Translations under genes and position numbers: made by a program
Notes under the pieces: generated by a model
What the model saw: only the letters and a program-made list of their open reading frames with translations
The model's database searches: none
Told to the model about the DNA's origin: nothing
Shown: piece by piece, positions 2,796 to 37,799 of the stretch
Layout: each line of letters begins with the position of its first letter
Position numbering within the stretch: the first letter of the stretch is position 1
Sequence record: OR539216.1
Source: Escherichia phage vB-Eco-KMB41
Direction: 5' to 3' (one strand)
DNA length: 41,822 nt

Positions 2796-2820
2796 AAGGG
2801 GCCAGAAGGCCCCTTTTTTA
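2796..2820 (+). terminator. Rho-independent terminator (AAGGGGCC-AGAA-GGCCCCTT + T-run)
   Basis: Perfect 8-bp GC stem and T5 tract right after the Rz stop; also closes the convergent minus-strand gene. Confidence 0.8.
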
Positions 2821-3624
2821 TGCTGCCGGGTTGACCGTGACCGTACAGACGGCGGAGGTAACGGTGTTCGGCGCGACGGTGTTCGAACTGGTGGCAATAC
2901 AGCGGTATTGACCAGCGTCCCCGGTCGCCGGGCTGGCAACGTTCAGCGTTGCGGCGGTAGCCCCGGAGATGTTCGTCCAGGAGGTCCCGCCGTTCGTGGA
3001 CTTCTGCCACTGGTAGGAGTACGGCGCGAGGCCCGTCGTGGAGTTTACCGCGATCGACAAGCTGGCTGCGGTCCCCACGGTCCAGGTGGCGGTCGCCGGG
3101 AGGTTGGTCGAGAGAGCGATCGCTGGCTTGGTACGCTCGCGCAAGCTCTCGGCGGTCTGGCCCGCGCTGTCGGTTACGCGGCAAAAATAATCGCCGTTGT
3201 TCCCTGCTGCGTACCCGGTGATCGTATACGTCGGGGAGTTCGTCCCCACTGGGTTGTCGGTGCTGGATGCCCGGCGAAACCATGCGTAAGTATACGGCGG
3301 GACGCCACCACTCACGGCGACCGTGAACGTCTTGTTACTTCCCAGTGGGATATAACTCGCCCCGGCGTCGTTGGCGTTGTTACCCGGTAAATTTTGGGTA
3401 AACACGATCGGCGGGACCAGCGCCGGATCCAGTTCGATGTAAAACATTTTCGTGGGGTCCAGGTTGGACGGTTCACTGTCCAGCCAGATCACATCCTTTT
3501 GATGGACCTTGCTCGGATCAAGGATTCGCGTCACTTTCCAGCCCATCAGGTCGGCGCGGCGGTAACGATGCCAATAAGCCATAATTTTGTCCTCGTGAAA
3601 TTGTGCGGTATACTGCCCCGGCAT
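2818..3624 (-). CDS. Ig-like domain protein (two tandem Ig-like repeats)
   Basis: Two ~80-aa repeats sharing PPYTYAW/APYSYQW and GDYFC/GQYRC motifs typical of Ig-like folds; N-terminal ~90 aa unrelated. Alternative start at Met15 (about 3582) has a better SD (GAGGA). Confidence 0.75.
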   Translation of the reverse strand: MPGQYTAQFHEDKIMAYWHRYRRADLMGWKVTRILDPSKVHQKDVIWLDSEPSNLDPTKMFYIELDPALVPPIVFTQNLPGNNANDAGASYIPLGSNKTFTVAVSGGVPPYTYAWFRRASSTDNPVGTNSPTYTITGYAAGNNGDYFCRVTDSAGQTAESLRERTKPAIALSTNLPATATWTVGTAASLSIAVNSTTGLAPYSYQWQKSTNGGTSWTNISGATAATLNVASPATGDAGQYRCIATSSNTVAPNTVTSAVCTVTVNPAA

Positions 3625-3651
3625 TGTAGATCATCTCTGGCGTTAAAACGA

Positions 3652-3683
3652 AAGGAGCCGCTTTTTAAGCGGCCCTTTTTTTT
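3652..3683. terminator. Terminator hairpin (GCCGCTT-loop-AAGCGGC) flanked by A- and T-runs
   Basis: Stem-loop with T9 on plus side and T-rich tract on minus side; lies between two minus-strand genes. Confidence 0.6.
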
Positions 3684-3783
3684 AGAGTACCATCGACACG
3701 CCGAAACCGATTAAAGCCCACAGCGCGGCGCTGGCTGCGATTACGCCCCATATAACGTATTTACTTCCGCGTAAGTCAGTCAT
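3682..3783 (-). CDS. small hydrophobic peptide (33 aa, single predicted TM helix)
   Basis: Unlisted small ORF MTDLRGSKYVIWGVIAASAALWALIGFGVSMVL; its ATG overlaps the TGA of 3780..4172 (ATGA coupling) and it ends at the terminator. Confidence 0.35.
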   Translation of the reverse strand: MTDLRGSKYVIWGVIAASAALWALIGFGVSMVL

Positions 3784-4172
3784 GATATTTTCCCCTCTCT
3801 TTTGAATTTACCCAGGCGCCCGCGAATGGATGCCTTGCTCTTGTTCAACCACTGCCCGACCTGCTCGTGGGTCAGGTCTGCCCGCGTTACCTCATGAAGC
3901 CCGGTAGCCTGAGCGATATCAAGAACGTCGTCCGGCGTCAGTTCATCCACCCAGAAGCGGATCAGCTTCTTGTCCTCGTCAGTGGTCCACCAGCTATAGG
4001 TCCGGCGGTGAGCCAGTGAAACGCCCAGCTTGGACGCTCGGACTTGCATCTGGCGGAAGTTACGCCCGATCAGCTTCGCCAGGTCATGCGCTGGCATCGT
4101 CCCCGCCAGCTTCTCCAGTTCTAAATCTTCCTGCCCGGTCCATCCGATCCGGGTTGCGTTCTTTTTAGCCAC
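3780..4172 (-). CDS. hypothetical protein (130 aa)
   Basis: ORF with GTG start preceded by AAGGAGG SD; no recognisable motif. Confidence 0.65.
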   Translation of the reverse strand: MAKKNATRIGWTGQEDLELEKLAGTMPAHDLAKLIGRNFRQMQVRASKLGVSLAHRRTYSWWTTDEDKKLIRFWVDELTPDDVLDIAQATGLHEVTRADLTHEQVGQWLNKSKASIRGRLGKFKREGKIS

Positions 4173-5031: not shown

Positions 5032-5050
5032 TTTAGCAAAAAGTGCTATT
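5032..5050 (-). promoter_or_regulatory. Palindromic box site 2 (TAGCA-AAAAG-TGCTA)
   Basis: Same oriented box, followed about 22 bp downstream (minus sense) by TATTAT, then SD and ATG of 4653..4976. Confidence 0.45.
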
Positions 5051-7338: not shown

Positions 7339-7357
7339 TTTAACAAAAAGTGCTATT
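7339..7357 (-). promoter_or_regulatory. Palindromic box site 3 (TAACA-AAAAG-TGCTA, one mismatch)
   Basis: Degenerate copy of the oriented box upstream of the methylase gene. Confidence 0.35.
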
Positions 7358-7438: not shown

Positions 7439-8255
7439 ACCCGAACGCGCCAGCCAGATCTCCCCCTATGCAAGCCCTCCCCGTCCTGTCGTAGCCGTAC
7501 AGGAAAACCTCGTCCGGGTCAGTGTAAACGAACCGGATCTCCCGATCGCCGTCGTAGATCGCCGAAGCCTGGACGGCGTTCATAGGCCGGAACGTCAGCC
7601 AGACCTCCGCCTCCCCTCGCGCCGCCACGTTCACGGCATGAGCCGGATCCGCCACGAGATACACCGGAGCGTCCGGCGCTGGGTGGATCAGTCCGACCGC
7701 GCCCCACGTTGGCCCGCCAGCGGCAAACACCACGGACCTGTCGGAGCCGATCTTCGCAACGTTGCACCACGGCCCCAGGGATCCCCCCAGTGGACGAGCG
7801 CATGGAACATACAGGAAGCCGTCCCGCATCGCGCCTTTAGCCATGACTCGCTCGACGTCCTCCGGGGAGAGTTCCCAGTCCTGCGCGGGCTTGTCCTGCT
7901 GCCGGGCATACTTGCGGGCCTCTTTGACGATCGTCTCCCGCTTCTCCGGGGTGAGTCCGCCTATCCAGTCGCCCAGGTCGTTGATCGCCTCGTTGAACGG
8001 CTGCGATCGGCTGGTCATAAACCAAAACATGCCATCACGAGCGCCACCGCACGAGCCGGAACAGTACCCGAAGCCCTCGGCCTTTTTCGTCTGCTGCTTA
8101 TGGCCCCAGCGAAAGCGATCGGTCCCGCCACAGATCGGGCATGGCTGGTGATTGCCGTTAAACGCCTTGCGGTCCCATCCACAGAGATCGAGGAGCGCCT
8201 GTTCCCATTTGCCGGGCATCGCCGCGAGAACGTCCTCTTTTTTATAAATTGCCAT
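7437..8255 (-). CDS. DNA primase (zinc-binding)
   Basis: N-terminal CPICGG...DRFRW zinc-ribbon typical of phage/plasmid primases plus a second Cys cluster; divergent from the helicase gene. Confidence 0.7.
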   Translation of the reverse strand: MAIYKKEDVLAAMPGKWEQALLDLCGWDRKAFNGNHQPCPICGGTDRFRWGHKQQTKKAEGFGYCSGSCGGARDGMFWFMTSRSQPFNEAINDLGDWIGGLTPEKRETIVKEARKYARQQDKPAQDWELSPEDVERVMAKGAMRDGFLYVPCARPLGGSLGPWCNVAKIGSDRSVVFAAGGPTWGAVGLIHPAPDAPVYLVADPAHAVNVAARGEAEVWLTFRPMNAVQASAIYDGDREIRFVYTDPDEVFLYGYDRTGRACIGGDLAGAFG

Positions 8256-8320
8256 CTTGCCCTCCGTTTCTTTCGCGGTTACTATAAATCATGCTTTAGT
8301 GATATTACAAGGGATAAACA

Positions 8321-10360
8321 ATGTTAATGACATTGGAAAAACAGATCGAGGCACTCGACCGGGACGCCATACTCCGCGCCCTCGGAGACATGCCTGTTAC
8401 ACCATACGATCACCAGTTCGTAGCATATGAGGCTTGCGCGGAGGCCATCCGTCGCTATCCTGGCCCGGTCATTGTGGACGCCGCCGTGAGTGCGGGTAAA
8501 ACCATCATGATCTCCATGCTGGCCCGCCGAATCAGGGATATGGGATTCCCCGCCATGATCCTGTCCCGTCAGGGGGAGATCATCGATCAGGACTTCGAGG
8601 AGTTGCGGAACTTCGGCGTAAACTCCTCGATCTACTGCGCCAGCCTGGGACGCAAGTCGGCACACTTCCCGATCGTCGTCGGCTCCGAGGGTACAGTGAT
8701 CGGAGGACTCCGCCCAGGTCAGGCCCTCGCCCATTACGCGCCGCTGTTCCTGCTGATCGATGAATGCCATCACGTCAACATTGAGGACCTGATCCGCTCA
8801 CAGGAGCGCATAGTCCCGGAGTACCTGCGCGACGATAAGGGGGAGATCATCCTTGACGGCTTCGGGGATCCGACCGTTATCGGAGAGCATAAGGGCGAGA
8901 CATACGAGGAGATGGTCGAGGCGGGCCGCGCCAGCTATACGATCATTATCCGCACGTTGCAGCAACGCGCCCGCGAGGTGTACGGGAAGGAACTCCGCAT
9001 TATCGGCTACACCGGGACGCCATACCGTGGCGTAGAGTCGATCATCCAGCCAGACCTCGAACAGCCCGGATTCTGGCGTAAAAAGGTCTGCGAGATCTCG
9101 ACGGAATACCTCGTAAGCGTCGGCGCTGTCGTTCCGACTCACTTCGGCCTGTCCAATCTCCACTATAACCTCGACCAGTGGCGATCGTCCGGCGAGGATG
9201 GCGTGAAGGAGTTCACGGACGCCGAAATGGACGCCATGCAAAAGGCGATCCTCAAAGAGAAAAAACTCACTCACGAGATCATGGCGGAGGTCTACGCCAT
9301 CGCACAGCACAGGAACGGCGTATTAGTGACGTGTGCGGGCGTGAGACACTGCAAACAGGCGGCGGAGGCCCTTCCCCCTGGTACGCCTTACGCCATCATC
9401 ACGGACGACACGACGGGCAAGAAGCGCATGGACATTTTGCGCCGCGCCAATACCGGGGAGATCAAGTTCATATTCCAGGTTAACGCCCTAACGACTGGCG
9501 TTAACGTCCCGTTCTGGGACACGTCGGTGATCCTGCGGAAGATAGGCTCCCTCACGCTCCTAACCCAGCTTTTAGGCCGTGGGATGCGAATCCTTAAGCC
9601 GTTCCATATCGCCGCCGGGGTGACGAAAGAGGATCACCTGGTGCTCGACTATGCCGGGACGCTGGACGAACTCGGATCCCTGTATTTCTCTCCGCTGCTG
9701 GAGGCATATCAGCACAGCGCCGACGAGAGCAAGGGGGAATTAGAGTTAGACTGTCCGAAGTGTCGCAAGGCGGGCCACCCTACGCTAAACGGCAAACACG
9801 CGCGACGCTGCCGCTACGTGGATCCAGACACTGGCGAACGCTGCGAACACTTTTTCCAGTTCATCACCTGCGACGACTGGAAGGACGCCAGCGGGCGGAA
9901 AGTGGTCCAGAAGGGATGCGGCGCACAAAACGACATCGTAGCGCGGATCTGTCGCTGCTGCGGGAACTCACTCGTAGATCCGAACAAGAACTTAAGCCGG
10001 ACGACCTACTCGCGGGACGACTACTACAACGTGAGGGACTTCCGCATGGAATTAGCGCGAGGGACTGGGGGGATCGCCTTCCGGTACGAACTGGAGAAGG
10101 ACGGGGACCAGTTTGTGGCGTGGCAAGTATTCTGGCCCGGTAGCGATAGCCCACAGGCGAAAAAGGAATGGCTCCATAATGGCATCCTTAAGCACGTACT
10201 GGACGGCAAGAAGCGGGCGGACATTAAGAAGCTACGGACGCCCCAGGAGGTCCTCGCGTATGCGCCTTACTTCATGGCTCCACTGAAAGTTACCCACCGG
10301 AAGATCGGCAAGGGTAAAGACGTTATATCAAACAAAATCTTTATGAATGAGGGTTTCTAA
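8321..10360 (+). CDS. superfamily-2 DNA helicase (DEAH-type) with C-terminal Cys-rich zinc-finger domain
   Basis: Walker A SAGKT, DEAH-like LLIDECHH, helicase C-terminal motifs (TGVNVP, LLGRGMR); C-terminal CPKC...CRCC clusters. Confidence 0.85.
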   Translation: MLMTLEKQIEALDRDAILRALGDMPVTPYDHQFVAYEACAEAIRRYPGPVIVDAAVSAGKTIMISMLARRIRDMGFPAMILSRQGEIIDQDFEELRNFGVNSSIYCASLGRKSAHFPIVVGSEGTVIGGLRPGQALAHYAPLFLLIDECHHVNIEDLIRSQERIVPEYLRDDKGEIILDGFGDPTVIGEHKGETYEEMVEAGRASYTIIIRTLQQRAREVYGKELRIIGYTGTPYRGVESIIQPDLEQPGFWRKKVCEISTEYLVSVGAVVPTHFGLSNLHYNLDQWRSSGEDGVKEFTDAEMDAMQKAILKEKKLTHEIMAEVYAIAQHRNGVLVTCAGVRHCKQAAEALPPGTPYAIITDDTTGKKRMDILRRANTGEIKFIFQVNALTTGVNVPFWDTSVILRKIGSLTLLTQLLGRGMRILKPFHIAAGVTKEDHLVLDYAGTLDELGSLYFSPLLEAYQHSADESKGELELDCPKCRKAGHPTLNGKHARRCRYVDPDTGERCEHFFQFITCDDWKDASGRKVVQKGCGAQNDIVARICRCCGNSLVDPNKNLSRTTYSRDDYYNVRDFRMELARGTGGIAFRYELEKDGDQFVAWQVFWPGSDSPQAKKEWLHNGILKHVLDGKKRADIKKLRTPQEVLAYAPYFMAPLKVTHRKIGKGKDVISNKIFMNEGF

Positions 10361-13982: not shown

Positions 13983-14010
13983 GAAGGGGCCAATTAAGGC
14001 CCCTTTTTTT
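13983..14010. terminator. Bidirectional rho-independent terminator (GGGGCC-AATTAA-GGCCCC + T7)
   Basis: Perfect GC stem with T-run on plus side and T-rich tract on minus side, between the convergent HTH and tailspike genes. Confidence 0.8.
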
Positions 14011-16219
14011 ATGCTGGCGTCCTGAATTGGATCGGTTTCGCCGCTGCGAGTTGCGTCCCCGCCGGGGTCGCCGTCACGATAGCGTCCGCGATATCGATCG
14101 TTACCGGGGCCGTGGAGTTGCTCGGCGGCGTCTGGTACGGTCCGCGAGTGATGCGGGTCGAGAGGTTCGCGCCACCAGCGCCAGCGCCGGGGATGATGAT
14201 CCTCGTGCCAGGGGAGAGCGGGTTCCCGAACAGCCACGGGCGGGAGGTTTCGTTCGCGATCGGGGTCACGTTACAGATCAGCTTTTTGTCGCCGACTGCG
14301 GTCGCCGCGATCTTGAAATTATCCGTCGCCGGGATGTACGCCCCGGAGGCCGTCACGGTGAAGATCTTCCCATCCTCGCGCACAATCAGATCGCCCGCCA
14401 TAAACTCCTTACCAGTCGGGAACGCGTTACCATCCCACGCTCCGCTCGATCCCTTGTTGATGTAGGTCCGGTTGGAGTTGGTCATGATGGCCCCGATGCC
14501 TCCCGCGATGCCCTGGGGAGGATATGGGGTGGCGATCACGTTGGAGCCGATGCTCTCAATGTCGGAGTAGGAACACTTACTCCACGCCTGATCGCCGTAG
14601 CCGTTCACGTCGATCGCGTTCACGTTGATCATACGGAGGCGAGAGAGGCCACGCGTCACGAAGCCGTCCGAGGTGGTCCCGCCGCTGGAGTCATCGCCGA
14701 CCGCATCGAACGAGCGGCAAGAGATATTCGACATTTCCAGCAGGGACGCCACGCCGAACAGGGAGAGCGTATAACAGTCGATGTTTTCGAATACCATCCG
14801 GTTTTCGAAGCCATTCCCCGCCGCCACGCCAGCGTAAACGCGTCCGTATTTGGTGTGGACGTTACGGACCGTCATATCAAAGCAAGGGTTAGACGGTGCG
14901 CCAGCAGTCACGCCCCACTCCAGCATAACCATGCGGAGAGAGTGGACGTCGGTCGATCCGGTTGCCACTGGCTCGCCGCTCACGCCGTCGATCGTGATGC
15001 GTTTGCAGCCATAACAGACCACTCCCCCCACGGTCAGGCCGGAGCCGACGCCGTAGCCCATATCCGGGTTTACATCGACATTGGTCACGGTACAGTCGCG
15101 CGCGACTTCCAGGTGGACACATTGGCGGCAACGGACGGCGGTCACGTTGGTGATCGTAACGTTCTTCGCGTATTGGCTGTCCGGGATATCCCAGCCATAC
15201 GGGCCTTGTCCGGCGATACCGATCCCGATGCCCCACGAAGGGTTAGCGGAGCCGATGGTGTCCAGTTGGATCCCGTCAATCAAACAGCCTTCATCGTAGT
15301 GCTTCTGGACCACGTTAAGCTCGATCCCGTCGCCGTCCATTTTGTAGAACGAAAGGTTACGATAAACGCCGCGCGTTACTGGCTCCCCGGTCCCCTGCTG
15401 CAAGATGCCGTAAAGGCCATTTTTGAACTCGCACTCCGTGACCTCGATCGTCCCGGTTTTCGGGTTAGCCTGGAGAACAATCGATCCCACTTTGGACGCG
15501 GTAGGCTTGCCGTCAAACAGGCAGTCACGGATCCGCACATCACCGCCCCAGAAGCGAACGCGCAAATTATTGATCGTCGCGCCCTTGAGGATTGAGCCAT
15601 CCAGGAAAAAGTCCGCCGTCCCTTTCCACGTACCGCCCATGATCAGGATGTTCTCGGCGGTCACATTGCCGTCGAGGGTCCCGGTCCAGCCCACCGCGTT
15701 AACCGCGAGTTTCTGGGCCTCTGCCGTGTCAAACATCGTCTGAATCGCTGCGGACACGCTGGTGAATGGCGCTTTACCCACGAACTGGAAAGGCGTCAGC
15801 CAGCCCTGGATCGACTCCTTCACGTTGCCGTAAGTGGTCCCGACGTACTCCCACCCAGTCGGCGAGGTGAGAAGGTTCCACATCTGCACAGGGTCATACT
15901 TGAACAGGTTCGCAAAATAGAACTGCTCGACGTCGTTCCGGTCTAAAACCTTCATGGACGATTCGATCTTGGTGATCAGCTTGACTACTTGACCGTTCCA
16001 GACCGGATAGCCGGAGACGTTGGTCCTGATCGGCTGAGGGATCGGCGTCAGAGTTCCGTCCTCGTCCTCGACAAAGACCTGAGTCTGGTTAGCCGGGTTT
16101 AATGGGTCGGTGTCCTTCACGCCGATATAAATTTTCCCATCCACCAGCGCCGCGAAACGGTCCAGGCGGAGGAAAGGCGTCGAAGGCATACCAATATCAG
16201 CGTATACGTCGCGGGCCAT
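14009..16219 (-). CDS. tailspike protein (P22 gp9-like N-terminal head-binding domain + distinct beta-helix receptor-binding body)
   Basis: N-terminus matches P22 tailspike as recalled (DGKIYIGVKDTDPLNPANQ...YDP); remainder is Gly/Asn/Thr-rich like parallel beta-helix enzymes. Start set at second ATG (GGAGA SD); ORF track start is 16231. Confidence 0.85.
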   Translation of the reverse strand: MARDVYADIGMPSTPFLRLDRFAALVDGKIYIGVKDTDPLNPANQTQVFVEDEDGTLTPIPQPIRTNVSGYPVWNGQVVKLITKIESSMKVLDRNDVEQFYFANLFKYDPVQMWNLLTSPTGWEYVGTTYGNVKESIQGWLTPFQFVGKAPFTSVSAAIQTMFDTAEAQKLAVNAVGWTGTLDGNVTAENILIMGGTWKGTADFFLDGSILKGATINNLRVRFWGGDVRIRDCLFDGKPTASKVGSIVLQANPKTGTIEVTECEFKNGLYGILQQGTGEPVTRGVYRNLSFYKMDGDGIELNVVQKHYDEGCLIDGIQLDTIGSANPSWGIGIGIAGQGPYGWDIPDSQYAKNVTITNVTAVRCRQCVHLEVARDCTVTNVDVNPDMGYGVGSGLTVGGVVCYGCKRITIDGVSGEPVATGSTDVHSLRMVMLEWGVTAGAPSNPCFDMTVRNVHTKYGRVYAGVAAGNGFENRMVFENIDCYTLSLFGVASLLEMSNISCRSFDAVGDDSSGGTTSDGFVTRGLSRLRMINVNAIDVNGYGDQAWSKCSYSDIESIGSNVIATPYPPQGIAGGIGAIMTNSNRTYINKGSSGAWDGNAFPTGKEFMAGDLIVREDGKIFTVTASGAYIPATDNFKIAATAVGDKKLICNVTPIANETSRPWLFGNPLSPGTRIIIPGAGAGGANLSTRITRGPYQTPPSNSTAPVTIDIADAIVTATPAGTQLAAAKPIQFRTPA

Positions 16220-16231
16220 TGTGATCTCCAT

Positions 16232-21272: not shown

Positions 21273-21715
21273 TTGGTCCTCTCCTCAAAAAAATTACTTC
21301 CGCCATGTTACCGTCCGCCAATTGTACAAGCTGCGGGGCGCTTTCAACAAATCCCACCTTTCGGACCACGTTCCGCGCGTGTCGGTGTGACATGAGAACA
21401 GGGACGCGGATCGCATAATGGCCCCAGTGAGCCAGAAAAGCCTCGCAAGCCTCGCGTGACCGTCTGCGTCTGGGTGGATCCATCGCCATATGACCATCGA
21501 TCCCGCCTTCGTCGTTTGCCATGATGGCGAACACGCAACGCCATATGACCATCGATCCCGCCTTCGTCGTTTGCCATGATGGCGAACACGCAACATTTTT
21601 CCCACAGAAAATATTTTGCCTCGACGTGGCGAGGCCATTCCGGCAAGCCCCAGGCGTGGAGGAGGTCCACGCCGGAGTCTGGCACGAGTTCGATCATCTC
21701 TCCATAGTCCATCAT
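21256..21715 (-). pseudogene. virion gene at the P22 gene-14 position, frameshifted by an exact 55-bp tandem duplication
   Basis: Three overlapping minus-strand ORFs in different frames; peptide CVFAIMANDEGGIDGHMA is encoded twice, once per repeat copy; removing one copy would give a single ~134-aa ORF. Confidence 0.55.
21484..21593. repeat. Exact tandem direct repeat, 2 x 55 bp (GCCATATGACCATCGATCCCGCCTTCGTCGTTTGCCATGATGGCGAACACGCAAC)
   Basis: Two identical adjacent copies read directly in the sequence; 55 is not a multiple of 3. Confidence 0.85.
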
Positions 21716-24812: not shown

Positions 24813-26072
24813 TTACGACTGCTTAGGCAGTACCAGGCCGACATATTCCGGCACGAGGACGGAGGTCCCGTACAGGGTAGTGAATCGGCAAGTGGTCACG
24901 CCCGCGATGTGATCGAACGCGTAGGACATGATCAGCGTCGCGCCCTGTTTGGTGGTGGCTCGCATTACCTGCGGACCTTGACCAGTAGGGAACGCCAGAT
25001 TACCGAACATCAGTTCCACGGAGCCGTCGGCCCACAGGAGGTTAGCGTTAGCCGCTGCCTTGTTGATCACGGTCAGCGCTGCGCCGGAGGCCGCGTTCGC
25101 GTCCACGTTCGCGTAAGGGCGAGATGGCACGTCGGCATTGTTCGGCGGCAGGATCTGAGGGGTGATCGTGATGTTGTTGCCGGAAACATCCAGGACGCGG
25201 AACACTTGAGGGGTGTCCGTGGTGTCCTTGCTGATCATGTGAACCATGTTCACGCCCGCGATGGTGAACGCGTCGCCAGCTTCCAGGCCGTGACCAGCGG
25301 AAACGGAGATGATGCCCTGGCGGTTATCGACCGGGAGATCGTTCGCGTCTTTCGCTACGACTTTGTGAGCCGGAGCGGAGGCCAGCGTGATCGCGCCAGT
25401 CGGGCCAGCGCCCAGTCGTGCGGAGATGTCGGTCTGGTACGAGTCAAAGCCCGCAACGTCCGGGATCTTCGCCTTTTCGTAGGCGGTCTGGGTCAGACCT
25501 GCGGCGTATTGACGTCCGCCCAGTTCTTTAGCCAGATCTTTGTAAGAGAACGCGTTCCAGAAGGAGCGCTTATTCACGCCCTGCGGGATGCCGATCGAGG
25601 TGAACTGAGCGCCCACTTGTGCGGCTGCGTCCCACAGATCGAGGCCCAGGGTCCCCTGAGAGTTATCGCCTACCGGGATCACATGGGTAGCGTAACGCGC
25701 TGCGGTAGCGATCAGGTCGGAGTCGATCTTCGCTGCTACACGCTGGCCCGCTGCTCGGCCCATTTCTTTCTTGTGCTCCGGGTCGCGCATCTCGCGAGCG
25801 TCCAATTTCCACAGGACGTTCTGAGGCTCTTTAAAAGCCGACGGGACGAGACGCTGGACGATATCGGTCCCGGTTTTCCCGGTCAGGTCCAGACCTTCGA
25901 TGATATCCGCGTGATAACGCTGCGGACGGTATTCAACGTCCCCGGCGCGTTGCATCGCGGTATCGCTTGGGCGGTATTTCGCGGCGTTCTGCGATACCAC
26001 GCAAGACGCTTCGAAGCTCTCCACATACTCCTCGAAAGCGATTTCGAGGTCCTTCGCTAACTGGTTAGCCAT
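24813..26072 (-). CDS. major capsid (coat) protein, P22 gp5-like
   Basis: Blocks match P22 coat as recalled (AKYRPSDTAMQR, RPYANVDANAASGAALTVIN, LLWADGSVEL); 419 aa; followed by a strong terminator. Confidence 0.9.
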   Translation of the reverse strand: MANQLAKDLEIAFEEYVESFEASCVVSQNAAKYRPSDTAMQRAGDVEYRPQRYHADIIEGLDLTGKTGTDIVQRLVPSAFKEPQNVLWKLDAREMRDPEHKKEMGRAAGQRVAAKIDSDLIATAARYATHVIPVGDNSQGTLGLDLWDAAAQVGAQFTSIGIPQGVNKRSFWNAFSYKDLAKELGGRQYAAGLTQTAYEKAKIPDVAGFDSYQTDISARLGAGPTGAITLASAPAHKVVAKDANDLPVDNRQGIISVSAGHGLEAGDAFTIAGVNMVHMISKDTTDTPQVFRVLDVSGNNITITPQILPPNNADVPSRPYANVDANAASGAALTVINKAAANANLLWADGSVELMFGNLAFPTGQGPQVMRATTKQGATLIMSYAFDHIAGVTTCRFTTLYGTSVLVPEYVGLVLPKQS

Positions 26073-26108: not shown

Positions 26109-27107
26109 TTACTTCTTCCGGTTCTTCGCTGCCAGGTAATCCGTATAATCTCCGGTTGCTTCGGCGCGTTTGCGGAGGGCTTCGAGTTGCCCCACGTTCG
26201 CGACGCCGTTCTGGCCTTTGACTTCTGGCGTTTTGTTTACTTCTTTCTTGGCCTTTGGTGCGCGTCCTGCGCGGCTCTCAATATCGCGGATAAGGTAGCC
26301 CAGCCCGATATGGTCCGTATTGTAGGCTTCCTCGACCTGTTTACGCAAATCCGCGTTACGACCGATCGCCATTACGACGCCCGCCGGGTCGTTCTTGCTA
26401 TGGATCATCATTGCCGCCTGGAGTGGTTCCGGCAGTTCTGCGATCACGGCTTCCGCCTTCTCATAGCCCGCAAAGCGTTTTAACGCCTTCGCGCGTTCCG
26501 TCTGGTAGCGCTGCTGGCCTTCGCTGAATTGTTTGCCGAAAACCTCCATGCGCTGGGCTTGCTTTTCCTGGTGCTGCTGCCATGCGGCCTTATCTTCGGT
26601 CCACTTGTCCAGCGCCTCGGCGTACTTCTCCGGGTCCCAGTCGATCCCTTCGTCGCCCATTTCCGGCTTACGCGGCATATCGGCGGGGATGTTCGCTGGA
26701 TCCTTCTTCTGGGTGGATTCCTTGAACTGTTTCTTTTGCTCGCGGAGTTGGGCGCGAAGATGCTTAACCAGATCGGTGTCGCCTTCCTGATCGTCCTCGT
26801 CGGAGGCTTCCACGGTCACAGGCTTGCCGTCGAACAAAAACTCCTCTTGCTCGTCGTCGTCGCCGCCGTTCTCGCCGTTCTCGCCTTCCTTCGCCTTCGG
26901 CTTGCCGTTTTCGTCCAGGTCCTGCTCGTCCGTGTCAGTGTCCGCATTGTCGCGATCCTGCTCGTCCGGGTCGGTGTCCGGGGTGTCGTCGGCGTTGTCG
27001 TTCTGGTCCGCGTTCTCGCTGTTCTGCATAGCTTCATACGCCGCCGCGCCGCCGTCGTTCTCGGTGTGCGGTGCGTAATATTTCAAAAACATTTCACGGA
27101 ATTTCAT
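26109..27107 (-). CDS. scaffolding protein
   Basis: Highly acidic N-terminal half, helical Lys/Glu/Gln-rich body; positioned immediately upstream of coat as in P22 gene 8. Confidence 0.75.
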   Translation of the reverse strand: MKFREMFLKYYAPHTENDGGAAAYEAMQNSENADQNDNADDTPDTDPDEQDRDNADTDTDEQDLDENGKPKAKEGENGENGGDDDEQEEFLFDGKPVTVEASDEDDQEGDTDLVKHLRAQLREQKKQFKESTQKKDPANIPADMPRKPEMGDEGIDWDPEKYAEALDKWTEDKAAWQQHQEKQAQRMEVFGKQFSEGQQRYQTERAKALKRFAGYEKAEAVIAELPEPLQAAMMIHSKNDPAGVVMAIGRNADLRKQVEEAYNTDHIGLGYLIRDIESRAGRAPKAKKEVNKTPEVKGQNGVANVGQLEALRKRAEATGDYTDYLAAKNRKK

Positions 27108-28052: not shown

Positions 28053-28071
28053 TTTAGCAATTCGTGCTCTT
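28053..28071 (-). promoter_or_regulatory. Palindromic box site 4 (TAGCA-ATTCG-TGCTC, one mismatch)
   Basis: Oriented box followed about 22 bp downstream (minus sense) by TATAGT and a GGCGGGG-loop-CCCCGCC hairpin, upstream of 27502..27978; overlaps the stop codon of 28054..28359. Confidence 0.5.
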
Positions 28072-36120: not shown

Positions 36121-36139
36121 TTTAGCAATTCGTGCTATT
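36121..36139 (-). promoter_or_regulatory. Palindromic box site 5 (TAGCA-ATTCG-TGCTA, perfect)
   Basis: Followed about 22 bp downstream (minus sense) by TATAGT, then GGCGGGA-loop-TCCCGCC hairpin, SD and ATG at 36048; overlaps the stop codon of 36135..36416. Confidence 0.55.
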
Positions 36140-37780: not shown

Positions 37781-37799
37781 TTTAGCAATTCGTGCTATT
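37781..37799 (-). promoter_or_regulatory. Palindromic box site 6 (TAGCA-ATTCG-TGCTA, perfect)
   Basis: Followed about 22 bp downstream (minus sense) by TAATAT, then GGGCG-loop-CGCCC hairpin and the ATG at about 37707. Confidence 0.55.

Follow-up and report, generated by a model that had tools for sequence, protein, structure and literature searches.

The open reading frame at 2818..3624 on the minus strand, which encodes 268 aa, was studied in the context of the window, i.e. the whole 41,822-nucleotide stretch of DNA from Escherichia phage vB-Eco-KMB41 (OR539216.1). This gene, hereinafter the Ig gene for the Ig-like domains of its product, converges on a lysis cassette comprised of genes for a holin (1453-1809), an endolysin (1796-2275) and, in the same plus-strand operon, an Rz-like spanin (2272-2793). 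It is the final gene of the strand that carries the replication genes, with the stretch from 3.7 to 13.7 kb being given over to replication and recombination, and the virion gene closest to it, that for the tailspike (14009-16231), is about 10 kb away. Hence, the initial annotation correctly described the gene as lying outside the structural module and facing the lysis genes. An out-of-frame ORF with a lipobox (LLIGC) is embedded in the spanin gene at 2510-2725 on the plus strand; it has the features of a typical Rz1-type o-spanin and is without annotation in the related RefSeq records. On the other side of the Ig gene, a 33-aa ORF with a single TM segment (MTDLRGSKYVIWGVIAASAALWALIGFGVSMVL) occupies 3682-3783 on the minus strand, stopping just short of a conserved hairpin at 3655-3675. 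Versions of it that are 91-100% conserved are present in IME_EC2 and, as annotated genes, in ST231 and Lumpael. The ORF overlaps the stop of the next gene (ATGA). This next gene (3780-4172, minus strand), which is directly upstream in the same operon, matches the PHROG family 'transcriptional regulator, D5-like' (E=3e-18) and is among the more divergent genes, with 61-67% identity between close relatives.

The first 8 kb of the window are 86-88% identical to the Murrayvirus genomes ST231 and IME_EC2, with about 91% of the length covered, and PHROG searches recovered a P22-type virion module on the minus strand at approximately 14.0-33.0 kb. This module encodes a tailspike with a colanic-acid-degradation domain, three ejection proteins, the tail needle, Hc3, Ad3, the major head protein, scaffold, portal and terminase. 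The window represents a Murrayvirus-like podophage whose virion module is of the P22 type. Its coat protein (24813-26072, minus strand, 419 aa) shares 70-72% identity with its counterparts in CUS-3, Sf101 and Kapi1, which are temperate P22-like phages. Outside the virion module, i.e. in the replication module and the methylases, the genome is unrelated to the lambdoid/P22 phages. Apparently, the phage is lytic and has either kept or acquired a P22-type virion module. Scans of the window for tRNA genes and for Rfam families returned no matches.

The Ig gene offers two in-frame start codons. A Shine-Dalgarno sequence GAGGA at 3590..3594 lies 7 nt 5' of the ATG at 3582, and this GAGGA-N7-ATG arrangement is invariant in an alignment of the upstream DNA from the window, IME_EC2, Sortsne and Skarpretter, which represent three genera. 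It is a strong signal that resembles those of the structural genes. The ATG at 3624 is preceded by a weak SD-like GATGA, and in Skarpretter there is no start codon at the equivalent position. Most gene calls among the homologs begin at the methionine equivalent to M15 (query coverage 94-95%), and residues 1-13 are predicted to be disordered, with pLDDT below 50 in the AlphaFold2 (AF2) model. Given the invariant signal, the starts of the homologs and the low confidence of these first residues, the true start is probably ATG 3582 (M15). The most probable coding sequence, for which the match to the family phrog_2973 was also considered, is then 2818..3582 (minus strand), with 254 aa plus stop. 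The 14 codons of the upstream extension (3583..3624; MPGQYTAQFHEDKI) would probably serve as a leader that is not translated, or else provide a minor alternative start. As several spurious ORFs overlap in this region on both strands, one might suspect an ORF that is open by chance in DNA rich in G+C, or what is left of a decaying gene. We give this possibility virtually no weight, as it is already refuted by conservation and structure prediction: among the 63 homologs of the protein the domain boundaries are maintained and the core residues of the Ig domains do not vary, AF2 yields a confident model, both the SD and the start codon show conservation, and the Pfam scores exceed the curated cut-offs.

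Two conserved hairpins bracket the gene, and both exceed shuffled sequence in stability (z -2.8 to -4.6). The G+C-rich hairpin at 2796..2815, between the spanin stop and the Ig-gene stop, has a predicted stability of -21.8 kcal/mol on the plus strand (z -4.6) and -20.4 kcal/mol on the minus strand (z -3.5). It is predicted to be a strong terminator of the plus-strand lysis operon, with a weak U-tract on the minus strand. The second hairpin, at 3655..3675 upstream of the gene, is likely a terminator or attenuator closing the upstream minus-strand operon; its stem and CTCCTTTCGTTT tail are invariant in the window, IME_EC2, Sortsne and Skarpretter. In both cases the better T-tract is on the plus strand (T6 in the first and a perfect T8 in the second), the minus-strand tails being ACTTATTGCT and CTTTCGTTTT, respectively. 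A scan of the minus strand over 3625-3800, from beyond the upstream hairpin to the start codon, found no sigma-70-like promoter. The TACAAT at 3625-3630 was considered as a -10 element (5/6) and rejected, as it has no acceptable -35 or extended -10, and an apparent late-promoter motif shared with two structural genes (GATGATCTACAATG against GAGGATCTACCATG) proved to be merely the SD-plus-start context.

We also recognized a promoter/operator-like element that occurs in six copies (AGCAC-N3-TTGYTAAA, with the palindrome TAGCA-N5-TGCTA inside it), where 0 matches would be expected by chance. The copies are at 65-80 on the plus strand and at 5032-5047, 7339-7354, 28053-28068, 36121-36136 and 37781-37796 on the minus strand. 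Each of them is directed at downstream genes, with TATTAT, TATAGT or TAATAT approximately 22 nt downstream, and they lie upstream of the lysis operon, a head-gene block, dam and other blocks. The element looks like an activator-dependent class of phage promoter common to the lysis, head and replication blocks, and the D5-like product of the 3780-4172 gene is a candidate for its regulator. No copy is found at the Ig gene; the nearest one upstream on its coding strand (5032..5047) is a candidate source of read-through transcription. The initial annotation had proposed a separate, terminator-bounded transcription unit. There are indeed hairpins on both sides of the gene, but a separate unit is not established because the better T-tracts are on the plus strand and neither a promoter of its own nor a copy of the element was found. 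Read-through of a leaky hairpin at 3655-3675 is an equally good inference, and transcription would probably proceed in this way from an upstream phage promoter, or else from an unrecognised one.

The bulk of the protein is made up of two Ig-like domains of the I-set/Ig_3 type, encoded on the minus strand at 3127..3408 (domain 1) and 2821..3126 (domain 2). Pfam searches recovered Ig_3 in two stretches (E=6.1e-12, 46.3 bits against a cut-off of 30), as well as I-set (E=2.2e-7) and the SprB repeat (E=3.3e-7), and the two domains are paralogous to each other (29% identity, E=2e-6). The AF2 model, built with 43 homologs, has a mean pLDDT of 91.3 and displays a small β-domain followed by two β-sandwich domains. 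Foldseek searches against the PDB recovered I-set Ig proteins, with the Hoc protein of RB49 (3shs) at rank 2, and a phage N4 capsid entry (9e99) was also matched. Domain 1 is thus delineated by Pfam, AF2 and Foldseek, and domain 2 by Pfam, its paralogy to domain 1 and matches to known decoration proteins (see below). These results support the two tandem Ig-like repeats that had been recognized earlier, for which a Pfam check had been suggested. Across the family the number of Ig domains varies between 2 and 3.

In searches of the PHROG profiles the protein was matched over its whole length by phrog_2973, 'Hoc-like head decoration' (E=3.2e-65), with residues 2-268 aligned to positions 25-286 of 310. 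Its best sequence relatives in the PDB are all capsid decorators, namely gp20 of Sf14 (9c2d_S, E=5e-16) and Hex-Dec of Bas63 (9ncf_S, E=1e-11), with pb10 of T5 also being matched (8zvi_a, E=2e-8; 5lxk, E=3.5e-7). All three are positioned at hexamer centres, with a variable number of Ig-like domains pointing outward (PMC11821841; PMC12609058). The gp20/Hex-Dec proteins of the Ounavirinae (9C2D, 9NCF) share with the window protein the order of an N-terminal non-Ig domain, an anchor in their case and a putative one here, followed by C-terminal Ig-like domains, of which there are 2-4 in these monomeric proteins and 2 or 3 in the window family. However, their capsid-binding domain (CapBD) is about 118 aa long, largely helical and two-lobed (PMC11821841; PMC12609058), whereas the N-terminal domain of the window protein is about 58 aa long and all-β. 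Likewise, their T=9 HK97-like capsids belong to myophages, as against the P22-type coat of the window podophage. The Ig domain of T5 pb10 (5LXK, 8ZVI) matches domain 2 of the window protein (E=2e-8), but pb10 has one Ig domain rather than two, and no relationship was detected for its N-terminal domain; pb10 itself is dispensable and binds hexamer centres (PMC11821841). Hoc of T4 and RB49 similarly displays tandem Ig-like domains from the capsid, but has three of them and the reverse polarity, with its capsid-binding domain at the C-terminus (PMC11821841). Its sequence relationship with the window protein is limited to the Ig fold. On the P22-type coat lattice, an accessory protein is known in the form of Dec from phage L, which most P22-like phages are not known to carry. 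Dec is a trimeric OB-fold/β-tulip-type cement protein at quasi-three-fold sites with no Ig domain. It resembles the proposed role of the window protein in being an accessory addition to such a coat, and differs in being a non-Ig protein; no search with the window protein returned any similarity to it.

The database names of the homologs, such as 'tail protein', 'neck whiskers' and 'major tail subunit', raise the alternative of a virion protein of the neck or tail, i.e. an Ig-like collar, whisker or tailspike accessory with an N-terminal domain that binds the portal, adaptor or tailspike. Weaker PHROG matches through the Ig domains are indeed to 'tail protein'/'major tail protein' families (phrog_3995, E=1e-30; phrog_158, E=7e-22), related Kosakonia phages have been described with a 'collar' (PMC8402661), and Ig-like collar proteins are found in Bas63 and GP4 (PMC12609058). 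Nevertheless, we consider such a location rather unlikely. The names 'neck whiskers' and 'major tail subunit' trace to Ig similarity with tail-tube proteins such as lambda gpV and Sf11 gp24, which combine a tail tube with a C-terminal Ig domain. Sf11 gp24 was itself deposited as 'neck whiskers' and then shown to be the tail tube. The window protein shares the Ig-like domain with them but not the tail-tube fold: in place of the latter there is the 58-aa β-domain without a fold match, and the P22-like virion module, with its needle, Hc3, Ad3 and ejection proteins, belongs to a podophage without a tail tube. Moreover, the Ig domain of the Sf11 tail tube is a marginal match (E=0.066), and the capsid decorators, with E-values from 5e-16 to 2e-8, resemble the Ig domains of the window protein far more closely. 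As Ig cassettes are known to be passed from one virion protein to another, Ig homology alone does not fix the location.

The N-terminal domain (N-domain; 3409..3582, minus strand) is a small four-stranded β-domain that is folded and distinct from the Ig part, and is a putative virion anchor. The initial annotation had described an unrelated N-terminal domain of about 90 aa; the domain is indeed unrelated to anything known, but the start at ATG 3582 reduces it to about 58 aa. Profile searches against the PDB yielded no match, fold searches found no similar fold and recovered family members only in the BFVD, and neither in sequence nor in fold could the domain be related to the gp20/Hex-Dec CapBD, the N-terminal domain of pb10 or the C-terminal domain of Hoc. 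A full-protein alignment that ran into the gp20 CapBD is accordingly not supported, as the profile, BFVD and HMM searches with the N-domain itself match the family alone. An exhaustive HMM search of 1.84 billion representatives recovered 7 clusters, all from one phage lineage. In all 7 the domain is either the N-terminus of an Ig protein of 238-333 aa or stand-alone (72 aa), with no fusion to any other display module among them. Two stand-alone proteins of 70-72 aa were observed, one encoded by a Salmonella phage, Lumpael, immediately downstream of its Ig gene (gp24; 3008-3220, minus strand, 70 aa), and the other on a further contig (P0065/L008, 122-340, 72 aa). Their homology is with the first ~40 residues of the N-domain, against whose profile they score 32 and 44 bits, and both are encoded adjoining the lysis cassette.

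The divergence of the N-domain does not track the overall divergence of the coat. In Lumpael, whose coat is 85% identical to that of the window phage, the whole Ig protein is about 42% identical and its N-domain is too diverged to be found by tblastn. Sortsne and Skarpretter have N-domains that are about 67% identical and coats that are 78% and 69% identical, respectively. We therefore do not use this comparison as evidence for a coat-binding domain, as it is uninformative or mildly against simple co-evolution, and the uncoupling from coat identity counts in favour of a neck or tail attachment. A somewhat doubtful extension of the capsid reading is that the ~58-aa N-domain represents a previously undescribed anchoring fold which docks Ig display modules on the P22-type coat, that the stand-alone copies in Lumpael (gp24) and P0065 are competitors or occupants of a second site, and that this would be the first Ig-type decoration on P22-like capsids.

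The Ig region has a wider distribution than the N-domain. In a 75-kb phage (contig ERR11525688_6351) that carries DNA pol A, rIIB and two tailspikes, the Ig region of the protein P0015 is 76.5% identical to that of the window protein and the N-domain is unrelated (21.7%). In GAP227, a Cronosvirus of the Autographiviridae, the Ig region is 44.6% identical and the N-domain, of 110 aa, is again unrelated (14.5%). The gene is co-directional with the virion genes in both, following the tailspikes and a DUF2514 spanin in the 75-kb phage and the large terminase subunit in GAP227. The 75-kb phage (L007) has two adjacent Ig-domain genes, at 7482-7934 (150 aa) and 8001-8762 (253 aa), the latter being the one with the 76.5% identical Ig region and the unrelated N-domain. 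This suggests that the Ig cassette moved between unrelated phages in recent times, and the pairing of a lineage-specific N-domain with a promiscuous Ig cassette fits the pattern expected of an anchor-plus-display protein. Murrayvirus, Sortsnevirus and Skarprettervirus all carry the gene at this same locus, where it converges on the spanin. DNA homology to Lumpael ends at 2823 and restarts at 3609; the neighbours are far better conserved (small ORF 100%, spanin 91%) than the ~42% identical Ig protein. The alignments indicate that the Ig coding sequence is exchanged as a recombination cassette between close relatives. CUS-3, Sf101 and Kapi1 lack the gene despite their 70-72% identical coats, an indirect indication that it would be an add-on to the capsid, dispensable for capsid assembly. 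In this sense the gene is accessory, as had been suggested earlier.

The further suggestions that the gene is moron-like cargo or involved in exclusion fare less well. As a general proposition, it could specify non-virion cargo, either a moron-like product that acts in exclusion or manipulates the host, or a soluble protein with Ig-like domains, freed at lysis, that binds host surface glycans. This would be consistent with a hairpin-bounded gene that lies outside the virion module and shares its strand with the replication genes, with a coding sequence swapped as a cassette between close relatives, and with its absence from temperate P22-like phages with similar coats. We regard it as decidedly unlikely, given that the same locus is filled in three genera, no promoter of its own was found, homologs elsewhere lie within late/virion operons, the Ig domains group with proven virion proteins, and the base composition is typical (GC 0.612 against 0.592 for the genome; GC3 0.761, similar to that of the neighbouring genes). 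The signal-peptide prediction proposed at the outset was negative: neither a signal peptide nor a lipobox nor a TM segment is present in the protein, with the maximum Kyte-Doolittle value over 15 residues being 1.29 and the N-terminus hydrophilic. This implies that the protein would stay cytoplasmic until lysis, with the envelope out of its reach before that point, which makes a role in exclusion or at the host surface unlikely. The surface exposure suggested earlier is plausible, on the virion rather than on the cell.

Taken together, we propose that the gene probably, albeit with considerable room for doubt, codes for a decoration protein of the Hoc/pb10/Hex-Dec type, non-essential and exposed on the virion surface, with the capsid as its location. 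This proposal draws on the phrog_2973 match, the PDB relatives, the modular N-domain confined to one lineage, the lack of an export signal, the strong SD and the co-direction with virion genes in GAP227 and the 75-kb phage. On the other side of the ledger, the 'Hoc-like' label rests on similarity, the N-domain matches no known capsid-binding domain and its divergence is uncoupled from that of the coat, and the gene ends the replication-gene strand rather than lying within the virion module. A literature search for virion proteomics or cryo-EM on any family member, including the Murrayvirus, Sortsnevirus, Skarprettervirus and Cronosvirus homologs, returned none. The analysis shows the domain architecture and Ig fold of the protein, the homology of its Ig domains to proven capsid decorators, the swapping of N-domains, the conserved locus and the absence of an export signal; its incorporation into virions, its site on the capsid, its role in adhesion and the way it is expressed are inferred. 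Under the proposed mechanism the protein would be synthesized in the cytoplasm, after which its ~58-residue lineage-specific β-domain would dock on the assembled P22-type particle, most likely on the coat-protein lattice, e.g. at a hexamer centre. The two I-set Ig-like domains would then project outward and may adhere, weakly and with low specificity, to surface glycans, host polysaccharide or mucus.

Proteins of the Hoc/pb10/Hex-Dec type are an ordinary, already-annotated kind of phage protein, and the RefSeq relatives carry that label; the unexplored feature is the small, putative N-terminal anchor domain without a fold match. If found on the virion, the protein would extend Ig-type (Hoc/pb10-like) decoration to P22-type capsids, and its very small lineage-specific anchor could be used for phage display as a compact tag for P22-like capsids. 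The clean swaps of the N-domain across three phage lineages illustrate the way in which adhesive Ig cassettes come to be directed to different particles. The analysis also has practical value in correcting misleading names ('major tail subunit', 'neck whiskers', 'tail protein') and the probable start codon. Elsewhere in the window, two tandem repeats were observed among the virion genes: a 55-bp head-to-tail duplication (21481-21590, 98% identical) in small minus-strand ORFs between the needle and ejection-protein genes, and a 36-bp tandem repeat (26913-26984, 78% identical) inside the scaffolding-protein gene.
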